From Candidatus Gastranaerophilales bacterium (GTDB lineage Bacteria > Cyanobacteriota > Vampirovibrionia > Gastranaerophilales > Gastranaerophilaceae), in assembly GCA_944325605.1 (NCBI GenBank), contig CALVAX010000010.1, positions 5,933 to 69,932 on the forward strand: a stretch of DNA of 64,000 nt. Direction: 5' to 3'. The notes below the pieces were generated by a model. That model did no database searches. It was given only the letters and a program-made list of their open reading frames with translations, and was not told the origin of the DNA. The translations under genes were made by a program, and so were the position numbers. Positions 19,698 through 64,000 of this stretch are shown here, piece by piece. How positions within the stretch are numbered: the first letter of the stretch is position 1; every line of letters begins with the position of its first letter.

Positions 19698-20225
19698 TTA
19701 CAAATTTATCCCTGACTTAAATCTTGCACTTATTGATTCCTGAACATCAATATAACTCATTGTCTGGGCTGCTGACTGATGCCCGAAATACCACTGAAGA
19801 AAAGTTAAATCTTTATATTTTTCATAATAGTGGTACCCGAAAGTTTTTCTCCAGGATTCCGCTGAAATGTCTGCAAAACCAAGTTCTTCACACACTGCTT
19901 TAAAATTCTGGTATGCGGAATGTCTGCCCAGACGCTTGCCGAATACTGATGTAAACAAAGGTTCAGAAGCTTTTTTATTTTCTGTTATTTTATCTACAAG
20001 TTTTTGAATTTTCTCCGGCAAAATATACTCTGCACCGGTTTTTAATTTCAAAGATTTTTTGTTCTTTACATCTTTCACATCCAGATTTAAAAGGTTCACA
20101 ACCTTCATGCCGGTATTTATTGCAAGCTCAAAAAGGAGCAGATCCCTGTCATTACCGGTTCTGCGATAGTAATTTTTTATCTGGGCTATTAAATTTTTAT
20201 CTTTTAACGGTACAGTTTTTGTCAT
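19698..20225 (-). CDS. small tyrosine-recombinase-like protein (catalytic domain only, 175 aa)
   Basis: NTGMKVVNLLNLDVKDV (Arg-I position is Lys), SWRKTFG and FGHQSAAQTMSYI (H...Y) segments. It is the first gene of the glycan operon. Confidence 0.65.
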   Translation of the reverse strand: MTKTVPLKDKNLIAQIKNYYRRTGNDRDLLLFELAINTGMKVVNLLNLDVKDVKNKKSLKLKTGAEYILPEKIQKLVDKITENKKASEPLFTSVFGKRLGRHSAYQNFKAVCEELGFADISAESWRKTFGYHYYEKYKDLTFLQWYFGHQSAAQTMSYIDVQESISARFKSGINL

Positions 20226-33244: not shown

Positions 33245-33937
33245 TCACGCTGACTTTAGATACTCACGGTCAAATGTGTCATAAGCGTTTCCCATATCGC
33301 AGGTGCCTTTATATCCGTAAGGCACAAGTCCGTATTCCTGAGATATTGAAAACATAAACAAATCCCGACCAAACCTGTTTGGCTTCTTGTAGCCGTTCAA
33401 ATCAAGCACAATGTCAAAAGCCTTTCTTGTCATTGCTGTACTGCCACCTGTAATATAAAATGTCATTCCGTCGACCGTGCTTACAACTAAAGCATTTGAA
33501 TAAAATAGAGTAAAAGTATTCTCAACACTCCCGTTCGGGCGTGTGTATTGCACTTTATCCGAAATTTTGCCGTATGTTGTTTCATTTATTTTTGCAAAAT
33601 GAGGTTTTAAGTACTGGTTGAAAAAGTCCGCATTTGACTGATTAAAATTCCAGTATTTAACGCTTTCATTGTGAACTTCTGAAAGCTCAATTGCCTGCGC
33701 CATAACGGAATAGGCCTTCTTTAACCGGTTTATGGTTTCGGCTTTCTGGTACCCTTCAATTACGCCCGGAAGTGTCATAGCTGCAACTATTCCGATTATT
33801 CCGAGGGTAATCAGGACTTCCGCCATTGTGAAGGCCGCGTGTTTGGATTTTTTCCTGTCATTCTGAACGGAGTGAAGAATCCAATTACGTTTTAAGTGGA
33901 TCCTTCGCCTTTGGCTCAGGATGACGCTTAATTCCAT
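33245..33937 (-). CDS. prepilin-type (type IV pilin/pseudopilin-like) protein, copy 1, probably disrupted
   Basis: AFTMAEVLITLGIIGIVAAMTLPG class III signal. An in-frame TGA at 33245-33247 is followed by 33 more pilin-like codons to TAA 33143. The leader is not connectable to the upstream start. Confidence 0.7.
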   Translation of the reverse strand: MELSVILSQRRRIHLKRNWILHSVQNDRKKSKHAAFTMAEVLITLGIIGIVAAMTLPGVIEGYQKAETINRLKKAYSVMAQAIELSEVHNESVKYWNFNQSNADFFNQYLKPHFAKINETTYGKISDKVQYTRPNGSVENTFTLFYSNALVVSTVDGMTFYITGGSTAMTRKAFDIVLDLNGYKKPNRFGRDLFMFSISQEYGLVPYGYKGTCDMGNAYDTFDREYLKSA

Positions 33938-33982
33938 TACTTTCGGCTAAAACGCTTGAAGGAGCCTGATTATAGGTTGCCA

Positions 33983-33991
33983 CCCCCCCCC
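33983..33991 (-). repeat. homopolymeric tract (G9 then TGG on coding strand) in pilin-1 leader cassette
   Basis: 9 C on the plus strand. It is the interrupted version of the 12-mer tract at 51679-51690. Confidence 0.9.
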
Positions 33992-34218: not shown

Positions 34219-34468
34219 ATTTCTTATCGCCTTTATTCCGAAACTAACCTTTCAACCTTTCACCCATTCCACTATTCAACTCTCCTCACGCTTCACGCTT
34301 CACTCTTCACTTTCCCGTCCGCCCCCTCACCCTGACCCTCAGCCATTCGGCATACAGTCTCACTCGGCTCGTTCCTCGCCGGTTCGAACTAGCATCCCAC
34401 AAGGGGAGATGGAAAATATTTTACTTAACAAACCTTTCAACTTTTCAACTATCTTCACTCTTCACTTT

Positions 34469-48736: not shown

Positions 48737-49463
48737 TTACGGAAGGCGGCTAAAAAAGTCTTTGTCATAAAGTGCTTTTATCGTGCATCCGCCGCCATTC
48801 ATATAATCGGTTGCAGTTGCGGAACATTTCATATTGCCCCAGCCTCTGTCAGGCATTTCACCTGAAGGAAATACACCGTCCTCATAGATAAGAAACATAA
48901 ACAAATCCTGTCCGAGTCGGTTTGGCCCTTTTTTGTAACCGTTTACATCAATACTTATACTCTTCGGGCAGGCTCCTATTGAGTTGACAAATATCATTGA
49001 ACCATCAGTCAAAATAAATTGCCCGTCGTCAAAACATTCCATATTGATATCAGTTGTTCCGGTAAAATTTTTATACGCCGGTCTGTTAATTGAAACACAT
49101 GCAGAGTCACGGTCATCGTACCCGAATCCGCAGTCAACAAGAACAGGCATATATTTCATAAGAGTTTCTTTAACCATATTTCCGTCTATATTATCATTTC
49201 TGGTAACAATACGTTCTCCTGTCAGTGCATAATGCATATCCAGCGCCTGATAAAGTCTTGAATAATTCTTTTTAAAAGCGGCTTCAAGCTGTTTGCCGCG
49301 TGCACGGTTTATTAACGACGGAAGCGTCATTGCGGCAACTAATCCGATTATTCCAATTGTAATCAGCACTTCCGCAAGTGTAAATCCTAAAAACCCGCTC
49401 AGAGGAAGTCTATGCGGCTGCCCCCCCCCCCCCTAAATCAGCTCTACAACTACGTTTCAGCAT
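48737..49463 (-). CDS. prepilin-type pilin-like protein, copy 2, frameshifted at a G13 tract (phase-variable candidate, OFF as sequenced)
   Basis: GAGGAGG RBS and ATG 49463 give MLKRSCRADLGGGG, then a frame break. With 12 G it continues QPHRLPLSGFLG|FTLAEVLITIGIIGLVAAMTLP. The span is 727 nt (3n+1). Confidence 0.75.
49421..49433 (-). repeat. homopolymeric G13 tract in pilin-2 leader
   Basis: 13 consecutive C on the plus strand. Confidence 0.95.
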
Positions 49464-49496
49464 TTTATCCTCCTCTGTTAGTTTTTCTTTAATTTT

Positions 49497-49525
49497 ATTT
49501 TAACAAATTTTTGTCACTTGTGCAA
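49497..49525 (-). promoter_or_regulatory. pilin-2 promoter
   Basis: The minus strand reads TTGCAC, 17 nt, (TGT)TAAAAT. Confidence 0.65.
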
Positions 49526-49577: not shown

Positions 49578-49734
49578 GTCATTCTGAGGACTTTAGTCCG
49601 AAGAATCTTTTTTATTAAGATACTTAGCTAACGCTCAGTATGACATTCTTTTTCAAGTCATTCTGAAGGCGAAGCTCGAAGAATTTCCCCGCTTCCTGTA
49701 CGTCATTCTGAAGGAGCGAAGCGACTGAAGAATC
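49578..49734 (+). repeat. cluster of three REP-like units GTCATTCTGA-N-GAAGAATC
   Basis: Units at 49578-49607, 49657-49684 and 49702-49734. The last recurs exactly at 51548-51580. Confidence 0.85.
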
Positions 49735-50222
49735 TCCTTCTGTTTTTTATTTCGTCCTCCGGACGGGGGCACTCGCTTGGTTGCTCGCGTTATGCGGGTC
49801 TACGCTGCAAGGCTCATCGCCTTGACCGGCTCCGCCCTCTGCTCGCAATCCGCTTTGATGGCAAAGCGACGGAAACCAGCCGCACGCTTCGTTCTCTAAT
49901 AATTTGCTAGACTCGGCATTTTGGCGGGTAAACTCGCTGCGCTCACTAATCAATTGTAACCGTTTCAATTAAGCAAGTGAACTCGTGCTTCGCACTCAAA
50001 CAGCACTTGTTTTGAAGTTTTGAAACGGAACATTGATTGTTCGCTCCGCAATGGTCGGAGGGAAAATATTTTATGTAACGAACTTATCGTCTTAACGTCT
50101 TTTTTAAAGTGAATAAGTTCTTTTCGGCGCTCCGCGCTAGCTCCGCGCAAATTTTAATTAAACATTACGCACTTATTCACTTTGTTAAAATCGCCTTTCT
50201 CAACTCTCTTCACCCTCACTTT

Positions 50223-50398: not shown

Positions 50399-50641
50399 CT
50401 GTCTTAACGTCCTAACATCTTTTATTCCAAAACAAACCCTTCAACTTTTCAACCCTCTTCACCCTTCACACTTCACGCCTCACTTTTTAGTCCGCCCCCT
50501 CTCCCTAGCCCACTCCCAGAGGGAGAGGGCAAAAATTTTACCGCATCACTAAGGTGTCAGTAATCAGAGATTCTCAGAACCTGCTAAAAACTACGCTTGA
50601 GATATAAATTTTTGTCTGACTGCCGGACAAGATTGCCGCTA

Positions 50642-51700
50642 TCAATCTTTAGAACCGTAAAAATAATCCATATTATCATAACGAATAATCCATTCGCCGC
50701 AGGTTCCGCCGTTACCTGTCGTAGCATTCTGATTTTTTTTCTTGCAGAACTTTTTTACATATTCATCGGTTCTGTTATAACCAACCGGAAAAATCCCTTT
50801 GTTAGTCGCAGCAAAAACGAAATGATCTTTTCCAAAATAATTTTTATTCTTCGGGTTACTGTTATTTGTAACAACAGCATAAATTATACCGCATTCATAA
50901 ATGGTTGTGGTATATGGATTCCCGTCATCATCAATATTTTCCTGATCGTATTCGCAACCCTGATGGACAGGATCAAGAATCATAAGAGAAAACCCGCCGT
51001 TCAAACGGATTTTCGGATAAATTTCCATATCATTCAACTCTCCCCAGCGATGCTCCCCGCTTAATGAAACAAACGAACCCTGAGATGTGCAGCCTTTTTT
51101 ATAATAGCATTTTTCAACAACATTCAGGTGCGGCTCCAGAATTTTTAACAAATCAGCTTCATCCTCAAGAATCCACGAATCCGGCGGGCCGCTTTCCATC
51201 ATCGCAAGATTGTATGCGTTTGCAAGAACCGAATACACTTTTTTGTATTTGGTTATAATAGCCTTTTCTTCATATCGTTTTGTAAGATTAGGAATAGTAA
51301 GGGCTGCGACAACTCCTATCAAGCCTAATGTAATCAGGACTTCCGCCATTGTGAAGGCTGAATGCCTTCTTTGCTTGTCATTCTGAACGGAGTGAAAAAT
51401 CCAGTTAGGTTTTAAGTGGATCCTTCGCCTTTGGCTCAGGATGACGTCCTTTTTTATGTCATTCTGAGGGTGGAAGCCCGAAGAATCTTCTTGTGCTGCC
51501 TTGTCATTCTGAAGGCAAAGCCCGAGGAATCCACTCGCACCCTGCACGTCATTCTGAAGGAGCGAAGCGACTGAAGAATCTTCTTGCTTTTTAATAAGAT
51601 CCTTCGCCTTTGGCTCAGGATGACGCTTAATTCCATTATTTTCGGCTAAAACGCTTGAAGGAGCCTGATTATAGGTTGCCCCCCCCCCCCGTAAATTCAA
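50642..51700 (-). CDS. prepilin-type pilin-like protein, copy 3, with about 115-codon repeat-built leader and G12 tract
   Basis: SAFTMAEVLITLGLIGVVAALTIPN class III signal. The ORF is open back to the G tract. The RBS-equipped ATG 51719 is out of frame by one nt (span 1078 = 3n+1). Confidence 0.75.
   Translation of the reverse strand: MNLRGGGATYNQAPSSVLAENNGIKRHPEPKAKDLIKKQEDSSVASLLQNDVQGASGFLGLCLQNDKAAQEDSSGFHPQNDIKKDVILSQRRRIHLKPNWIFHSVQNDKQRRHSAFTMAEVLITLGLIGVVAALTIPNLTKRYEEKAIITKYKKVYSVLANAYNLAMMESGPPDSWILEDEADLLKILEPHLNVVEKCYYKKGCTSQGSFVSLSGEHRWGELNDMEIYPKIRLNGGFSLMILDPVHQGCEYDQENIDDDGNPYTTTIYECGIIYAVVTNNSNPKNKNYFGKDHFVFAATNKGIFPVGYNRTDEYVKKFCKKKNQNATTGNGGTCGEWIIRYDNMDYFYGSKD
51377..51624. 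repeat. six REP-like units embedded in the pilin-3 leader-coding region
   Basis: Units at 51377-51402, 51418-51445, 51458-51487, 51503-51532, 51548-51580 and 51598-51624. Confidence 0.85.
51679..51690 (-). repeat. homopolymeric G12 tract in pilin-3 leader
   Basis: 12 consecutive C on the plus strand. Confidence 0.95.
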
Positions 51701-51917: not shown

Positions 51918-52003
51918 CTCCGTATCGCCTTTTTCTGAAACAAACCCTTCAACCTTTCAACTTTTCAACTCTTCAACCCTCCTCACCCTTCACGCCTCAC
52001 TTT

Positions 52004-52109
52004 GTTAGAACCTGACTTACAAATCACCCACACCCGAAATTGTAAGTTCGCTAATGCTCACTAACAATTTCTTCCCTCTCCCCTCAAGGGAGAGGGGATT
52101 TATTTTACG
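52004..52109 (+). repeat. 106-bp palindromic module E3, copy c
   Basis: Identical to 34725-34830 and 35006-35111. It is followed by the same 8-mer array and E5 module (52199-52244) as at 35112-35230. Confidence 0.9.
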
Positions 52110-52347
52110 AAACAAACCTTTCAACCATTCAACCTTTCAACCATTCAACTTTTCAACCTTTCAACTCTTCTCACTCTTCACCCTTCACCCCTCACTCTGA
52201 TAAAAACTTAACGCCCTATCGCCTTGCTGTCTTATCGCCTTTTTAAACGTAACGAACTTTTCGTCTTTACGTCCTGCGTCCTATCGTCCTATCGTCTTTC
52301 ACATATTTTTTTGACCATGGTATAATAATTATTAAGAAGGAAGCAGT

Positions 52348-53445
52348 ATGGGTGATGAAGATAAACAATTTGATGCGACGCCCAGAAAACTGGAACAGGC
52401 TCGCAAAGAAGGTCAGGTTGTAAAATCAAAAGATTTTTCAACTGCTATTTCTTTGCTCGTTTTGTTTACTGCAATTTACGGAGTTTCACCTTTTATATGG
52501 AATCAAATTACCCAGCTTTTTACGCTTATGTATGAGCAAATTCCGAATGCACATCTTGAAAAGATAGGTATGGCATATATTTTGATGATTACGATAAAAT
52601 GTGCCGCACTTATTATCGGGCCTATTCTATTTCTGGCCTGGCTTGTGGCAATTCTTGCGGATTTTATTCAGGTCGGCCCGCTTGTTGCGACAGCTCCTCT
52701 TATGCCGAAACTCGATAAACTTAACCCTACTAAATATTTCAAAAACATTATGTCCATAAAAACCCTCTTTGAACTTTTTAAGAATATAGTAAAAGTTGTG
52801 CTTCTGGGGTATATAGGCTGGACAGTATATATGGCGCATATTGAACATATTTTGATGCTTGCGGCTATTGACAACAATTTTGCTGTAATGATAGAGTTCG
52901 GAAAACTTGTTACTGAATTTATTTTCAAAGCCTGCATTGCGTTCCTTGTTATTGCCGCTGCCGACTACGGGGTTACTAAATGGAAGTTTCTGAAAGATCA
53001 GAAAATGTCTTTTAAAGAAATTAAAGATGAATATAAAAACACCGAAGGCGATCCAAACGTTAAAGCTGCTCTCAGACAAAGACGTATGCAGATGCTTCAA
53101 CGAGGAATGATGGATGCTGTTCCGGATGCTGATTTCGTCGTGACAAACCCTATTCACATTGCCTGCGCACTTAAATATAAAGCGGAAGAAATGGATTCTC
53201 CGATGCTTATTGCAAAAGGGACAGAGCTTATCGCAAAAAAAATTATTCAAATTGCAAAAGATCACAACATTCCGGTAATAGAAAATCCGCCGGTCGCAAG
53301 AGCCTTGTTTAAGATGGTCGATTTAAACAGGCAAATTCCGCCTGAATTGTACAAAGCTATTGCAGAAATTTTACTTTTTGTTTACAACTTGAAAAATAAT
53401 CAAAAGAGAAGTAGAATAGGTACAGAGCCTAATACTAGAAAATAA
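52348..53445 (+). CDS. flhB: flagellar export apparatus protein FlhB
   Basis: FDATPRKLEQARKEGQV N-terminus, 4 TM segments and the autocleavage site region VVTNPIHIACAL. TGGTATAAT at 52318-52326 and an AAGGAAG RBS lie upstream. Confidence 0.9.
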   Translation: MGDEDKQFDATPRKLEQARKEGQVVKSKDFSTAISLLVLFTAIYGVSPFIWNQITQLFTLMYEQIPNAHLEKIGMAYILMITIKCAALIIGPILFLAWLVAILADFIQVGPLVATAPLMPKLDKLNPTKYFKNIMSIKTLFELFKNIVKVVLLGYIGWTVYMAHIEHILMLAAIDNNFAVMIEFGKLVTEFIFKACIAFLVIAAADYGVTKWKFLKDQKMSFKEIKDEYKNTEGDPNVKAALRQRRMQMLQRGMMDAVPDADFVVTNPIHIACALKYKAEEMDSPMLIAKGTELIAKKIIQIAKDHNIPVIENPPVARALFKMVDLNRQIPPELYKAIAEILLFVYNLKNNQKRSRIGTEPNTRK

Positions 53446-53447
53446 TC

Positions 53448-54110
53448 ATGATTATGCAGGAAAAAAACAGACTACAAGAATACCTTGATATAGTAAGAAA
53501 AGTTGCAAAAGTCGAACACAGAAGAATACCGGCTCATATGGTTGAGTATGAAGAATTGTTGTCGATTGGTATTATTGCAGTACAGGCTCTTATCAAAAAC
53601 AAAACTCCGGAACAGCTTGCAAGATATAACATGGCCTATGTTGCAACCGCTGTCAGATGGGCAATCCGGAATGAACTTCGCATCCGATACAAATGGTATT
53701 CAATGAAACATAAAGCAGACGAAGAATTTGAACAGGATGAAGAAGTTGAAGGAATGGACATGCAAAAAGCAAAAGTCCGTGAAGCGGTGTATGAAACCGT
53801 TTTATCTATTGACGGACTTGCAGCTGCGGCCAGTGACAACGATTCTCCGTTTGATTTCTTAAAAGATCCGCACGCAAAACCTGATGAACAGGCAGAAATA
53901 GCCGAACTTGGCAGAATGATTCGTGCTGCAATTTCAAAACTTCCGCCAAAAGAAAGAACTGTTGTCGAATACAGGTTCTACAGGAATATGCAGGTAAAAG
54001 ACATAGCCACTCAGGTTGGACTTTCGCCTTCCAGAGTCACCCGTATAGTTCAATCATCGCTTAATTTCGTCAAAGAATATCTTAATAACCACGAACAGTA
54101 TGACTATTAA
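53448..54110 (+). CDS. fliA: sigma-70 family sigma factor, FliA/sigma-28-like
   Basis: Regions 2 and 4 are recognisable (VKDIATQVGLSPSRVTRIVQ HTH). It follows flhB directly. Confidence 0.7.
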   Translation: MIMQEKNRLQEYLDIVRKVAKVEHRRIPAHMVEYEELLSIGIIAVQALIKNKTPEQLARYNMAYVATAVRWAIRNELRIRYKWYSMKHKADEEFEQDEEVEGMDMQKAKVREAVYETVLSIDGLAAAASDNDSPFDFLKDPHAKPDEQAEIAELGRMIRAAISKLPPKERTVVEYRFYRNMQVKDIATQVGLSPSRVTRIVQSSLNFVKEYLNNHEQYDY

Positions 54111-58333: not shown

Positions 58334-59170
58334 CTAGTTACCAACCAGCCTCAAGGCTTCTTCAAGCAATTCTTTGTTGGTTGATATTAATTTATTGGAA
58401 ATTTCCATCTGAAGCTTTGCCATCTGATAATAAGAAATATTTCCTTTAAAATCAGCATTAGACATTTCCAGAAGTCCAGAACGAATTTCGCCCATACCAA
58501 GAACAGGCTTGCCAGATTCTTCTGTTTCTATAAAATATCCTTCATTAATTTCATAAAGAGCTGCAGCATTGTGGAAATTGCGGGTTGTTATCCGGTATAA
58601 CGGAATTGTTCTTTTTCCGCCGTCCGCTTTTCCGTAAATAGTGCCGTCTTCCTTAATTTCATAATCGTCATATTTACCTAAAAATTTTCCGTTGCTCGGA
58701 TCTATCCACAATTTGATATTTGTAGTCGGAACATCAAGAGCTCCGCCGTTTAATGCTGTTTGCTCATACAAATCCTGAGAAACAGTCTTGGTACCCTGCA
58801 TGATTTCGCCTTTATCATTCAGAATATACCCTTGAACAGTATTGCCGTTCTTTGCACGGTAAACCCCTTCGCCATCAAAAGTAAATTCTCCAAGACGGGT
58901 ATAAACACTTTTCCCTTCAGGAGTTTTTGTCAGGAAAAAGCCTTTGCCTTCTAAAAAGAGGTTATCTTTTGAAGTACCCGGGGTTGATTTACCCTGATCT
59001 GTTTTTTTATCATAATCATCAGCAATTGCCCCGCCAAGGAAAGTCTTAAAATTGACCTGAGCTTCCCTAAAACCGGGAGTATAGACGTTAGTCATGTTGT
59101 ATGCAATAACGTCCATCCAATTCTGGGTAGATTTCTGGGTATTCAGCGCCGTGGTATAAGAATCATTCAT
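58334..59170 (-). CDS. flagellar hook/rod protein (FlgE/FlgG family, short form)
   Basis: N-terminus MDVIAYNMTNVYTPGFRE and C-terminus GLLEMSNADF...YQMAKLQ. It lies downstream of the fliK-like gene. Confidence 0.75.
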   Translation of the reverse strand: MNDSYTTALNTQKSTQNWMDVIAYNMTNVYTPGFREAQVNFKTFLGGAIADDYDKKTDQGKSTPGTSKDNLFLEGKGFFLTKTPEGKSVYTRLGEFTFDGEGVYRAKNGNTVQGYILNDKGEIMQGTKTVSQDLYEQTALNGGALDVPTTNIKLWIDPSNGKFLGKYDDYEIKEDGTIYGKADGGKRTIPLYRITTRNFHNAAALYEINEGYFIETEESGKPVLGMGEIRSGLLEMSNADFKGNISYYQMAKLQMEISNKLISTNKELLEEALRLVGN

Positions 59171-63022: not shown

Positions 63023-64000
63023 CTATTGATAATCTCTGTCTTTGCCGGAACTTGTGCCGCGGAATACACCACGGAACATCTGGCTTAATTCATTCTTGTC
63101 ATCAGAATATTCAAGAGCAACATCTTCTGATATAAAGCCCTCATTATACAGATTATAAAGCGACATGTTCATTGTAATCATGTTGTTGAAAGAACCTTTA
63201 CGTACAAGATCATAGACATCTTCAAGCTTGTCTTTTTCTATAAAATCTTTAACTGTAGAAGTTACAACAAGAAGCTCGCAAGCCGGTCTGCGCCCCATAC
63301 CGTCTTGAAGCGGCACCAATCTCTGGGATACTGTTCCTCTTAAAATCTGTGCAATCTGTCCTCTGATATGAAGCCTGTCAGCAGGATCAAACATATTAAC
63401 AATTCGGTTTACGGTTTGAACAGCATCGTTAGTGTGAATAGTTGCAAACACTAAATGCCCTGTTTCTGCTGCTTTTAAGGCACTTACGACGGTTTCCCTG
63501 TCCCTGATTTCTCCGATAAAAATAACGTCCGGATCCTGTCTTAATGCATATTTTACACCTTCAGGGAAAGATGGCGTATCTATGCCTATTTGTCTTTGCG
63601 TAACTATAGATTTTCTGTTATTAAAAATAAACTCTACAGGATCTTCAATTGTAATAATATGTTTTGGATAGTTTTGATTTATATAGTCAACAAGAGAAGC
63701 AATAGTTGTTGATTTACCGCTTCCTGTCGGGCCTGTAATCAATACCAGCCCGTTGTTTAAAGTTGCAAACTGTTCAATAGCAAGAGGCAAATGAAGCTCT
63801 GAAACAGTTTTGATTTCATAAGGAATTGTTCTTATTACTAGAGAAAATCTGCCCAGTTGACGGCTCAAATTCACACGAAATCTTGAACATCCGGCAATTT
63901 CATAAGCAAAATCCAAATCATAAATATTATCAAGCATTGTATTGTTAATACTTGCAGGAAGCAACGCCCCGTAAGCTTCATCAATATCTGTCGCTGTTAA
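63023..64000 (-). CDS. pilT: type IV pilus retraction ATPase PilT (N-terminus beyond window)
   Basis: GLVLITGPTGSGKSTT, DPDVIFIGEIRD and HLVFATIHTNDAVQTVNRIV motifs. The frame is open to nt 64000. Confidence 0.9.
   Translation of the reverse strand, partial: LTATDIDEAYGALLPASINNTMLDNIYDLDFAYEIAGCSRFRVNLSRQLGRFSLVIRTIPYEIKTVSELHLPLAIEQFATLNNGLVLITGPTGSGKSTTIASLVDYINQNYPKHIITIEDPVEFIFNNRKSIVTQRQIGIDTPSFPEGVKYALRQDPDVIFIGEIRDRETVVSALKAAETGHLVFATIHTNDAVQTVNRIVNMFDPADRLHIRGQIAQILRGTVSQRLVPLQDGMGRRPACELLVVTSTVKDFIEKDKLEDVYDLVRKGSFNNMITMNMSLYNLYNEGFISEDVALEYSDDKNELSQMFRGVFRGTSSGKDRDYQ

Follow-up and report, generated by a model that had tools for sequence, protein, structure and literature searches.

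The window, as the 64-kb stretch of DNA from a Candidatus Gastranaerophilales bacterium is called here (37% G+C; all coordinates refer to it), encodes on its minus strand a pilin-like gene, gene 2, whose 5' coding region contains a long run of G residues. Upstream of this gene lies a promoter-like site (49497..49525, minus strand) with a -35 hexamer TTGCAC at 49525-49520, a 17-nt spacer and an extended -10 element, TGT-TAAAAT, at 49505-49497. A consensus scanner called the promoter of gene 2 as TGCACA-16-TAAAAT, with 9/12 matches and the TG present. The site is a putative promoter, recognised by its match to the consensus, and it is unchanged across all allele loci of the gene that were read. 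It is followed by the Shine–Dalgarno (SD) sequence GAGGAGG (49469..49475, minus strand), which is located 5 nt 5' of the ATG and is kept in the allele loci, with GAGGTGG in its place in two haplotypes. The start codon (ATG, 49463-49461) and the nine codons behind it (CTG AAA CGT AGT TGT AGA GCT GAT TTA) form the first part of the leader (49434..49463, minus strand) and encode MLKRSCRADL. Promoter, SD sequence and ATG are conserved across every allele read, and a distant species has a similar peptide in front of its tract (MSKRSHRASF-GGG, locus L084).

The poly-G tract begins at codon 11 and comprises 13 G residues in the window (G13, 49421..49433, minus strand), which places the gene out of frame. 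The sequence after the tract reads CA GCC GCA TAG, and the frame opened by the ATG yields a 17-codon peptide, MLKRSCRADLGGGGAAA, closed by this TAG (49410..49412, minus strand). With one G fewer, the ATG is joined to the 210-amino-acid (aa) open reading frame (ORF) at 48737-49369, and the product becomes MLKRSCRADLGGGGQPHRLPLSGFLG|FTLAEVLITIGIIGLVAAMTLPS, 241 aa in length, with a leader that reads GGGGQPHRLPLSGFLG|FTLAEVLITIGIIGLVAAMTLPS... when written out in full. The whole gene spans 48737-49463, that is 727 nt or 3n+1. In the pilin frame, the second half of the leader (QPHRLPLSGFLG; 49385..49420, minus strand) ends with the Gly at position -1 and is translated within 241-aa proteins (P0122, P0123 and others). 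The residues of the putative cleavage site are Gly -1 (49387-49385), Phe +1 (49384-49382) and Glu +5 (49372-49370). A sequence-only reading made before the present analysis had described this anatomy and had proposed that G12 restores a prepilin. Its promoter, GAGGAGG, ATG 49463, G13 tract at 49421-49433, stop and 727-nt span were confirmed in every detail, and the exact product it predicted is on record as P0122.

In the pilin frame, a TAG stands immediately 5' of the tract and no ATG, GTG or TTG follows until GTG 49369, at residue +6. The G13 allele is therefore left without an alternative start. None was found when alternative starts were sought; a CTG that would yield MSGFLG| lacks an SD sequence and was judged unlikely. 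The tracts themselves cannot be put down to chance. A G9 pattern has 10 matches in the window, all within three tracts, whereas shuffled sequence would be expected to give 0.04. G/C runs of at least 9 nt occur only three times in the 64 kb, each time as the poly-G tract of a pilin-like gene, and the window contains exactly three pilin-like N-termini, each preceded by one of these tracts.

The mature pilin-like protein, FTLAEV..., would consist of 215 aa (48737..49384 with the stop, minus strand), with an N-terminal methylation motif, a long helix and a β-sheet head. Its prepilin site, ...SGFLG|FTLAEVLITIGIIGLVAAMTLP, with Gly -1, Phe +1 and Glu +5 followed by a hydrophobic stretch, has the sequence of a class III leader. 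The restored product matches TIGR02532, the NCBIfam prepilin-type cleavage/methylation domain, with 16.6 bits (cut-off 16.3), and shows partial matches to the N-termini of GspG, PilA and ComG. An AlphaFold (AF2) model built from a 30-sequence alignment has a predicted local distance difference test score (pLDDT) of 83. It presents leader residues 1-24 as disordered (pLDDT <50), residues 29-81 as a 53-residue N-terminal helix and, C-terminal to this helix, a β-sheet head of about seven strands. Cysteines C111, C122, C213 and C226 are invariant in the family alignment. The predicted architecture of the protein is pilin-like, and sequence and model together make its exposure at the cell surface likely. 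In the most diverged haplotypes compared, the ratio of nonsynonymous to synonymous polymorphism (pN/pS) of the gene body is 0.0081/0.0663 = 0.12, and in-frame stops in the body number 0 among the alleles read. The body of gene 2 is under purifying selection.

Natural variation of the tract was followed in public assemblies, and all tract lengths given here are consensus values of assemblies, from the metagenome projects BRZ_* and ONAT22-1 and from Logan. The 210-aa out-of-frame call is recorded in 95 blocks of public assemblies. One 90% cluster mixes 241-aa in-frame alleles with 210-aa and 197-aa out-of-frame calls (P0121 and others). Within it, the 241-aa protein P0122, from the same species and with 16 contigs in the cluster table, equals the predicted G12 product residue for residue. 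Among the cluster members listed, about 41 contigs are in frame (ON) and about 104 out of frame (OFF), which gives an ON share of about 28%. These frequencies were taken from the contig counts of the cluster because protein look-ups are conditioned on the gene call. By such look-ups in ENA, Logan and NCBI assemblies, 54 allele loci of gene 2 were reached and read at the DNA level, with the distance from the ATG to the Phe +1 codon as the measure. The 20 loci reached via in-frame proteins all have 78 nt (ON). Of those reached via out-of-frame proteins, 30 have 79 nt (OFF), as does the window; one locus, L141, has 77 nt (OFF), and the remaining three (L133-L135) have a different leader. A gapped flank pattern for the locus gave 0 matches in the metagenomes of the Joint Genome Institute (JGI). 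The 197-aa forms were considered as contigs broken at the tract, a possible sign of heterogeneity, and this was rejected: they are merely alternative gene calls on OFF alleles.

Five local haplotypes occur in both phases, as the pairs G13/G12, A+G12/A+G11, T+G12/T+G11, A+G13+CACC/A+G12+CACC and A+G12+CAACC/A+G11+CAACC; the allele G12+CACC was also recorded. Over 2300 nt of downstream flank, 0 single-nucleotide polymorphisms separate the window and L004 (G13) from L012, L013 and L020 (G12), and ON and OFF alleles interleave in the other haplotype clusters as well. The tract would thus mutate faster than substitutions accumulate, since its length differs in the assembly consensus between otherwise identical backgrounds. 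BRZ_*, ONAT22-1 and the independent Logan assemblies (k=31) each contain both phases. According to the contig names, coverage in BRZ ranges from 3x to 64x for ON contigs and from 3x to 119x for OFF contigs (individual values are 64x and 16x for ON, and 119x, 39x and 16x for OFF), and no dependence of the ON calls on these coverages is apparent. The spacer from the tract to Gly -1 is open in the pilin frame in every allele read. A comparison of tract length among relatives, which the sequence-only reading had put forward as a check, finds the exact G12 product, further in-frame alleles and the out-of-frame form coexisting.

The other two pilin-like genes of the window, genes 1 and 3, have promoter, SD sequence and leader in common, the leader reading ATG AAA AGC CGY ACT ATG ATT GAA TTT AC-Gn. 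Gene 3 (ATG 51719-51717, body 50642-51700, minus strand) has ATG AAA AGC CGC ACT ATG ATT GAA TTT AC before its G12 tract (51679..51690, minus strand) and is out of frame from the ATG; a TTG located 10 nt 5' of the tract is in the pilin frame and gives a 352-aa ORF. From the ATG, gene 3 is in frame (359 aa called) in L002, with G11, and in L001, with TTTA+G12. In L003 and L012 it is the same as in the window and out of frame. Members of its cluster have 353, 359, 368 and 480 aa, and the tract of gene 3 is polymorphic between ON and OFF. Gene 1 (ATG 34020-34018, body 33245-33937, minus strand) has an interrupted tract, G9-T-GG (33980..33991, minus strand), and stops uncouple its pilin frame. Beyond an in-frame TGA (33245-33247) lie 33 more codons, similar to the family's conserved C-terminus. 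By its sequence, gene 1 looks like a decaying copy, and it is plausibly a pseudogene.

The family to which these genes belong is large, with 5426 database matches. Its hosts are represented by metagenome-assembled genomes of Candidatus Gastranaerophilales/Melainabacteria from the guts of humans, chickens, rabbits and ruminants. Of the 120 best cluster representatives, about 35 show GGG(G) in their leaders, while about 10 start from an internal 'MAEVLIT', apparently the mis-called start of an OFF allele. Genomes of other Gastranaerophilales species were surveyed for G/C runs of at least 8 nt in 80 loci, together 398 kb. There are 31 such runs, and 30/31 stand upstream of the pilin N-terminal motif, in a common layout of SD sequence, ATG, 8 to 14 codons and tract. 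Six of the 30 are poly-C tracts, which encode Pro-Pro-Pro. As assembled, 2 of the 30 tracts are in frame (ON), 8 need -1, 16 need +1, and 4 are uncoupled by stops, the pilin having its own SD-ATG. For the 26 frame-coupled tracts, the distribution 2:8:16 deviates from equal thirds with a chi-square of 11.4. ON is genuinely rare in consensus genomes. A similar imbalance is seen within the P0018 cluster, where about 3 contigs are full-length and about 55 truncated or short, whereas in the tract-less cluster P0061 hundreds of contigs uniformly give 238 aa.

In some paralogues, a second ATG stands just 5' of the tract and opens another frame, as in P0205/P0072 (MKKHDLLERRGGG vs MIYWNVGGG) and P0198/P0051 (MKNYDLLKCRGGG vs MSGGGH). 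With such a second start, two of the three tract phases give a leader–pilin ORF, and the outcome in these paralogues could be strong, weak and off levels of expression. In P0191, the frame of the tract leader continues into a gene with an additional MKKA start of its own.

These observations are best accommodated if gene 2 is a contingency locus, in which promoter, strong SD sequence and ATG would open a 26-residue prepilin leader. Codons 11-14 of this leader are made up of the G12/G13 homopolymer, and slipped-strand mispairing during replication would add or remove one G. With 12 G (78 nt), the leader would be continuous with the pilin-like protein and prepilin peptidase would cut after Gly -1. 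With 13 G (79 nt; rarely the 77-nt OFF form), translation would end after 17 codons and no pilin would be produced. Because it lies in a leader that would be cleaved and is predicted to be disordered, the tract would place no constraint on the mature protein. That length changes of the leader cost nothing, as had been proposed from the sequence, is plausible in view of the disorder predicted for it. In Gastranaerophilales (Melainabacteria) of gut and rumen, the device of SD sequence, ATG, about ten codons and G/C(8-13) stands in front of about one third of a very large pilin-like family, and its OFF state in most assemblies would make the expression of pilus subunits stochastic and combinatorial. 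A mostly OFF state would be expected if expression were costly or a target of immunity or phages.

What is found at gene 2 corresponds to a contingency locus in three respects: the tract in the 5' coding region exceeds chance, a single unit toggles the frame, and length is polymorphic on identical backgrounds in the assembly consensus. Slipped-strand phase variation of a large, mostly OFF family of pilin-like genes is thus the probable explanation, one that can be held with considerable confidence. Within this explanation, slippage as the mutational mechanism, cleavage by prepilin peptidase, exposure at the surface and host immunity or phage as the selective agent are presumed steps. The phase-variation reading first made from the sequence is supported by the length alleles on identical flanks and by the family-wide occurrence of the tract.

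Several results weigh against this explanation. As to the protein, gene 2 reaches 17.2 bits with PF07963 (Pfam N_methyl), under the gathering cut-off of 21.2, although 30/30 aligned family members match this model. A Foldseek search against the PDB gave no significant pilin structure, the best match being Clostridioides difficile PilA1 with E = 0.45. As to the tract, the closest homologues, P0002 (80%) and P0003 (71%), have short leaders without it. The tract is nevertheless not absent from relatives: in other Gastranaerophilales, about a third of the family carry a G/C tract at the same leader position. P0002 and P0003 say little about the locus of gene 2, since they lie in a different neighbourhood (MacB/SNF2 instead of DeoC/MTHFR/PGM) and have no tract. 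As to the lengths, OFF is exactly ON+1 in 31/32 OFF alleles of gene 2, a pattern that a systematic undercount by one base would also yield. In-frame variants differing by +/-3 are absent among the gene 2 alleles read, and consensus lengths of G homopolymers of 12-13 nt are error-prone, through the polymerase chain reaction (PCR) and on Illumina platforms. Finally, OFF predominates, both across species (2/26 coupled tracts in frame) and within clusters.

The points concerning length would be explained by a homopolymer artefact, in which a single true length (G13 or G12 everywhere) exists and the other arises from PCR stutter, sequencing error or miscalling by the assembler. Short-read data are known to be unreliable at long G runs, the two lengths are one base apart with OFF almost always ON+1, and they were read from assembly consensus. 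However, both lengths recur in many independent assemblies, those of two projects as well as the k=31 contigs of Logan. Within one pipeline and on identical haplotypes, they are specific to the sample at high coverage (64x for ON; 119x and 39x for OFF), and a 77-nt allele exists. Error is blind to the frame, yet the 26 coupled tracts of other species, 2 of them ON, are far from equal thirds; this bias therefore does not come from frame-blind sequencing error. The near confinement of the tracts to pilin leaders (30/31) also speaks against error and points to a selected feature. An artefact is accordingly considered improbable.

The predominance of OFF and the purifying selection on the body of gene 2 despite it would also fit recoding. 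Here the out-of-frame state would be the normal one, slippage of RNA polymerase or +1/-1 slippage of the ribosome on rare GGG codons would set a low level of expression, and variation of the DNA would be secondary. A G run is slippery in every frame, GGG should be rare at 37% G+C, and truncated calls outnumber full-length ones in other clusters too. Against this stand the in-frame DNA alleles, which are common for gene 2 (about 28% of the contigs listed) and exist for gene 3. Moreover, the shift that would be required is inconsistent, 8 tracts needing -1 and 16 needing +1, and is thus not the fixed arrangement expected of recoding. No stimulatory signal came up, though none was specifically sought, and most documented cases of efficient transcriptional slippage involve A/T runs. 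Recoding in place of a DNA switch thus appears about as improbable as an artefact, but some leaky expression of OFF alleles may well occur alongside switching of the DNA.

A further possibility is that the tract belongs to an upstream ORF or an element of the 5' untranslated region, the pilin starts elsewhere, and tract length modulates transcription or translation indirectly. Such an arrangement is suggested by L052, L060, L083, L108 and gene 1, which have stops after the tract and a separate SD-ATG near the pilin N-terminus, and by P0191, where the tract leader lies 5' of the MKKA start. For gene 2 it is very unlikely. Between the TAG preceding the tract and the GTG at +6 there is no ATG, GTG or TTG, and a start at this GTG would remove the cleavage site. 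In addition, the spacer from tract to Gly -1 is open in every allele, and the 241-aa form has the canonical G|FTLAE site. That gene 2 is a decaying pseudogene, the frameshift being one step of its loss, has a parallel in gene 1, with its interrupted tract, leader stops and internal TGA, but can be dismissed almost entirely in view of bodies free of stops, a pN/pS of 0.12, promoter, SD sequence and ATG conserved in every allele, and both phases on five haplotypes.

Besides the switch at a single gene, the comparison of tracts bears on how the device is distributed. On the G-rich strand, the flanks of the tracts are weakly conserved, roughly as TTC-Gn-CAAYCYTWAAGCT. The six poly-C leaders (C10-C11, ...EALRIAPPPE..., at L068:2473, L077:2428, L082:2230, L085:58, L103:2420 and L106:2400; five OFF, one ON) match this flank profile only antisense to the gene, that is, again on the G-rich strand. 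With the two adjacent bases excluded, 6/6 of their flanks are above the 95th and 4/6 above the 99th percentile of the flanks of control G5-7 runs. From this antisense-only fit, it seems that one and the same DNA module serves in both orientations. An inversion of the tract module in real time, an idea derived from the poly-C leaders, is unsupported at gene 2, where the orientation is the same in 54/54 loci.

Exchange between paralogues may take place at the tracts. In three contigs (L133:1-137, L135:1-123 and the k=31 Logan contig L134:1-80), a promoter and SD-ATG leader of the gene 3/gene 1 type are fused at the tract to the spacer and body of gene 2. Behind this may be a genuine recombination or a 2.26-kb deletion between the two tracts, which are direct repeats (D12), or else an assembly chimera. 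Furthermore, gene 3 of L001 has tract flanks of the gene 2 type, and the P0124 haplotype of gene 2 has the CAACC typical of gene 3 (CAGCC vs CAACC); the swapped bases suggest short conversion patches around the tracts. A lineage-wide modular contingency system may be imagined on this basis. Its unit would be a portable leader cassette of SD sequence, ATG, about ten codons, G/C(8-13) and weakly conserved, strand-specific flanks, used in both orientations (poly-Gly or poly-Pro), mostly OFF, and passed from one paralogue to another through recombination at the tract, which would result in combinatorial variation of the pilus surface. This wider proposal is a tentative one, for which the chances are slightly less than even.

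Simple-repeat switches of surface structures are familiar from other bacteria. Poly-G phase variation of pilC1/pilC2 in Neisseria gonorrhoeae and N. meningitidis was reportedly described by Jonsson and co-workers in 1991, and the pilC tract falls within the coding sequence of the cleaved signal peptide. The repeat of Neisseria pilC is genic and consists of G(9-20) (PMC5953494). Like pilC, whose frameshifts lead to ON/OFF pilus phenotypes, gene 2 has a G homopolymer in the range of about 9-20 nt within the frame of a type IV pilus protein. Unlike gene 2, which would encode a pilin-like subunit with a class III leader, PilC is a tip adhesin of the PilY1 type with a Sec signal peptide, so the resemblance is one of mechanism only; homology to PilC/PilY1 was not found, gene 2 matching only the N-terminal models of pilins and pseudopilins. 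A further difference is that a whole paralogous family has the device here, and that its hosts are Melainabacteria, not Proteobacteria.

Campylobacter jejuni possesses poly-G/C contingency loci, known from the work of Parkhill in 2000 and of the Bayliss laboratory. In that species, too, an AT-rich genome has few G/C runs of about 8-13 nt, otherwise absent, in the 5' coding regions of genes for surface structures; switching is mostly between two neighbouring tract lengths, and in vivo many of the loci are OFF. The targets there are glycosylation, capsule and flagellar-modification genes, with rates measured in culture, whereas here they are pilins. In Haemophilus influenzae, lic1/lic2A reportedly combine tetranucleotide repeats with start codons that lie in two different frames (Weiser and colleagues, 1989). 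The second ATG or TTG in another frame before the tract of some paralogues, and the ATG and TTG of gene 3, are comparable to lic1, but the repeat is a homopolymer here and CAAT there. Gene 2 has no second start and would therefore be a pure ON/OFF switch.

In Bordetella pertussis fim (poly-C) and H. influenzae hif (TA repeats), repeats in promoters phase-vary fimbriae. As in these systems, slippage in a simple repeat would govern the subunits of a surface filament, several paralogous subunits switching independently. The tracts of fim and hif, however, alter the spacing of -35 and -10 and thereby transcription, whereas the tract of gene 2 would be translated and act by frameshift.

Most of what has been established on contingency loci comes from a small number of cultured pathogens, such as Neisseria, Haemophilus, Campylobacter and Helicobacter. 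In the literature searched, no paper described repeat-mediated phase variation or pilins of this kind from Melainabacteria or Gastranaerophilales. The mechanism is classical; new would be its use across a large set of pilin genes, most of them silent, in a gut lineage that is uncultured. The findings suggest many stochastically switched pilin genes in a cyanobacterial lineage that is non-photosynthetic and inhabits the guts of humans and animals. Such a set points to strong and fluctuating selection on the surface, plausibly by secretory antibody, phages or adhesion niches. They also imply that gene callers truncate or mis-start such genes, as in the forms of 210 and 197 aa ('MLITIG', 'MAEVLIT') and in those called from a TTG. 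Since existing metagenomic reads should in principle reveal which loci are ON and which OFF, the hypothesis is testable without culturing. If the modular system exists, the ON/OFF states of a commensal would be directly readable from metagenomes.

The intergenic DNA around the three genes is rich in repeats. Short palindromic repeats, GTCATYCTGAG...GAAGAATC, crowd it at 51380-51640, 49578-49746 and 33850-33925, and arrays of TTCAACC/TTCACCC with an 8-nt period lie at 51943-52204, 50419-50476 and 34240-34330. Several palindromic units are found inside the open leader of gene 3 (about 117 codons) and are read in frame, reminiscent of in-frame insertions of palindromic elements in other bacteria. 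A scan of the entire window, palindromic repeats included, matched no Rfam family. In the survey of other species, the sole run of the 31 outside a pilin leader is a G8 on the reverse strand of L109 at position 126, located 5' of a small predicted membrane protein (MFNKINGGLNIL...).

The window is otherwise ordinary chromosome, with fmt, dnaJ, purD, sugar-nucleotide and glycosyltransferase genes, ruvB, flhB, a gene for a FliA-like sigma factor, and recO. A secretion ATPase of the T2SSE family (PilB/PilT type; PF00437, E = 1e-45) is encoded at 63023..63964 on the minus strand, where it is interrupted by the window end, and a component of type IV filament machinery is thus encoded in the genome. 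The window ORFs that were scanned included no prepilin peptidase. Near the pilin genes lie genes for FlhB, the FliA-like sigma factor and a rod or hook protein resembling FlgE/F/G (52348-54110, plus strand; 58334-59170, minus strand). Taken with the ATPase, they show that the organism encodes parts of both flagella and type IV filaments. The sugar-nucleotide and glycosyltransferase genes form a block at 9.8-19.7 kb with reduced G+C (0.28-0.34 at 10-16 kb), bordered by a 175-aa ORF of the phage-integrase family (19698-20225, minus strand), and this block may be a horizontally acquired surface-polysaccharide island.

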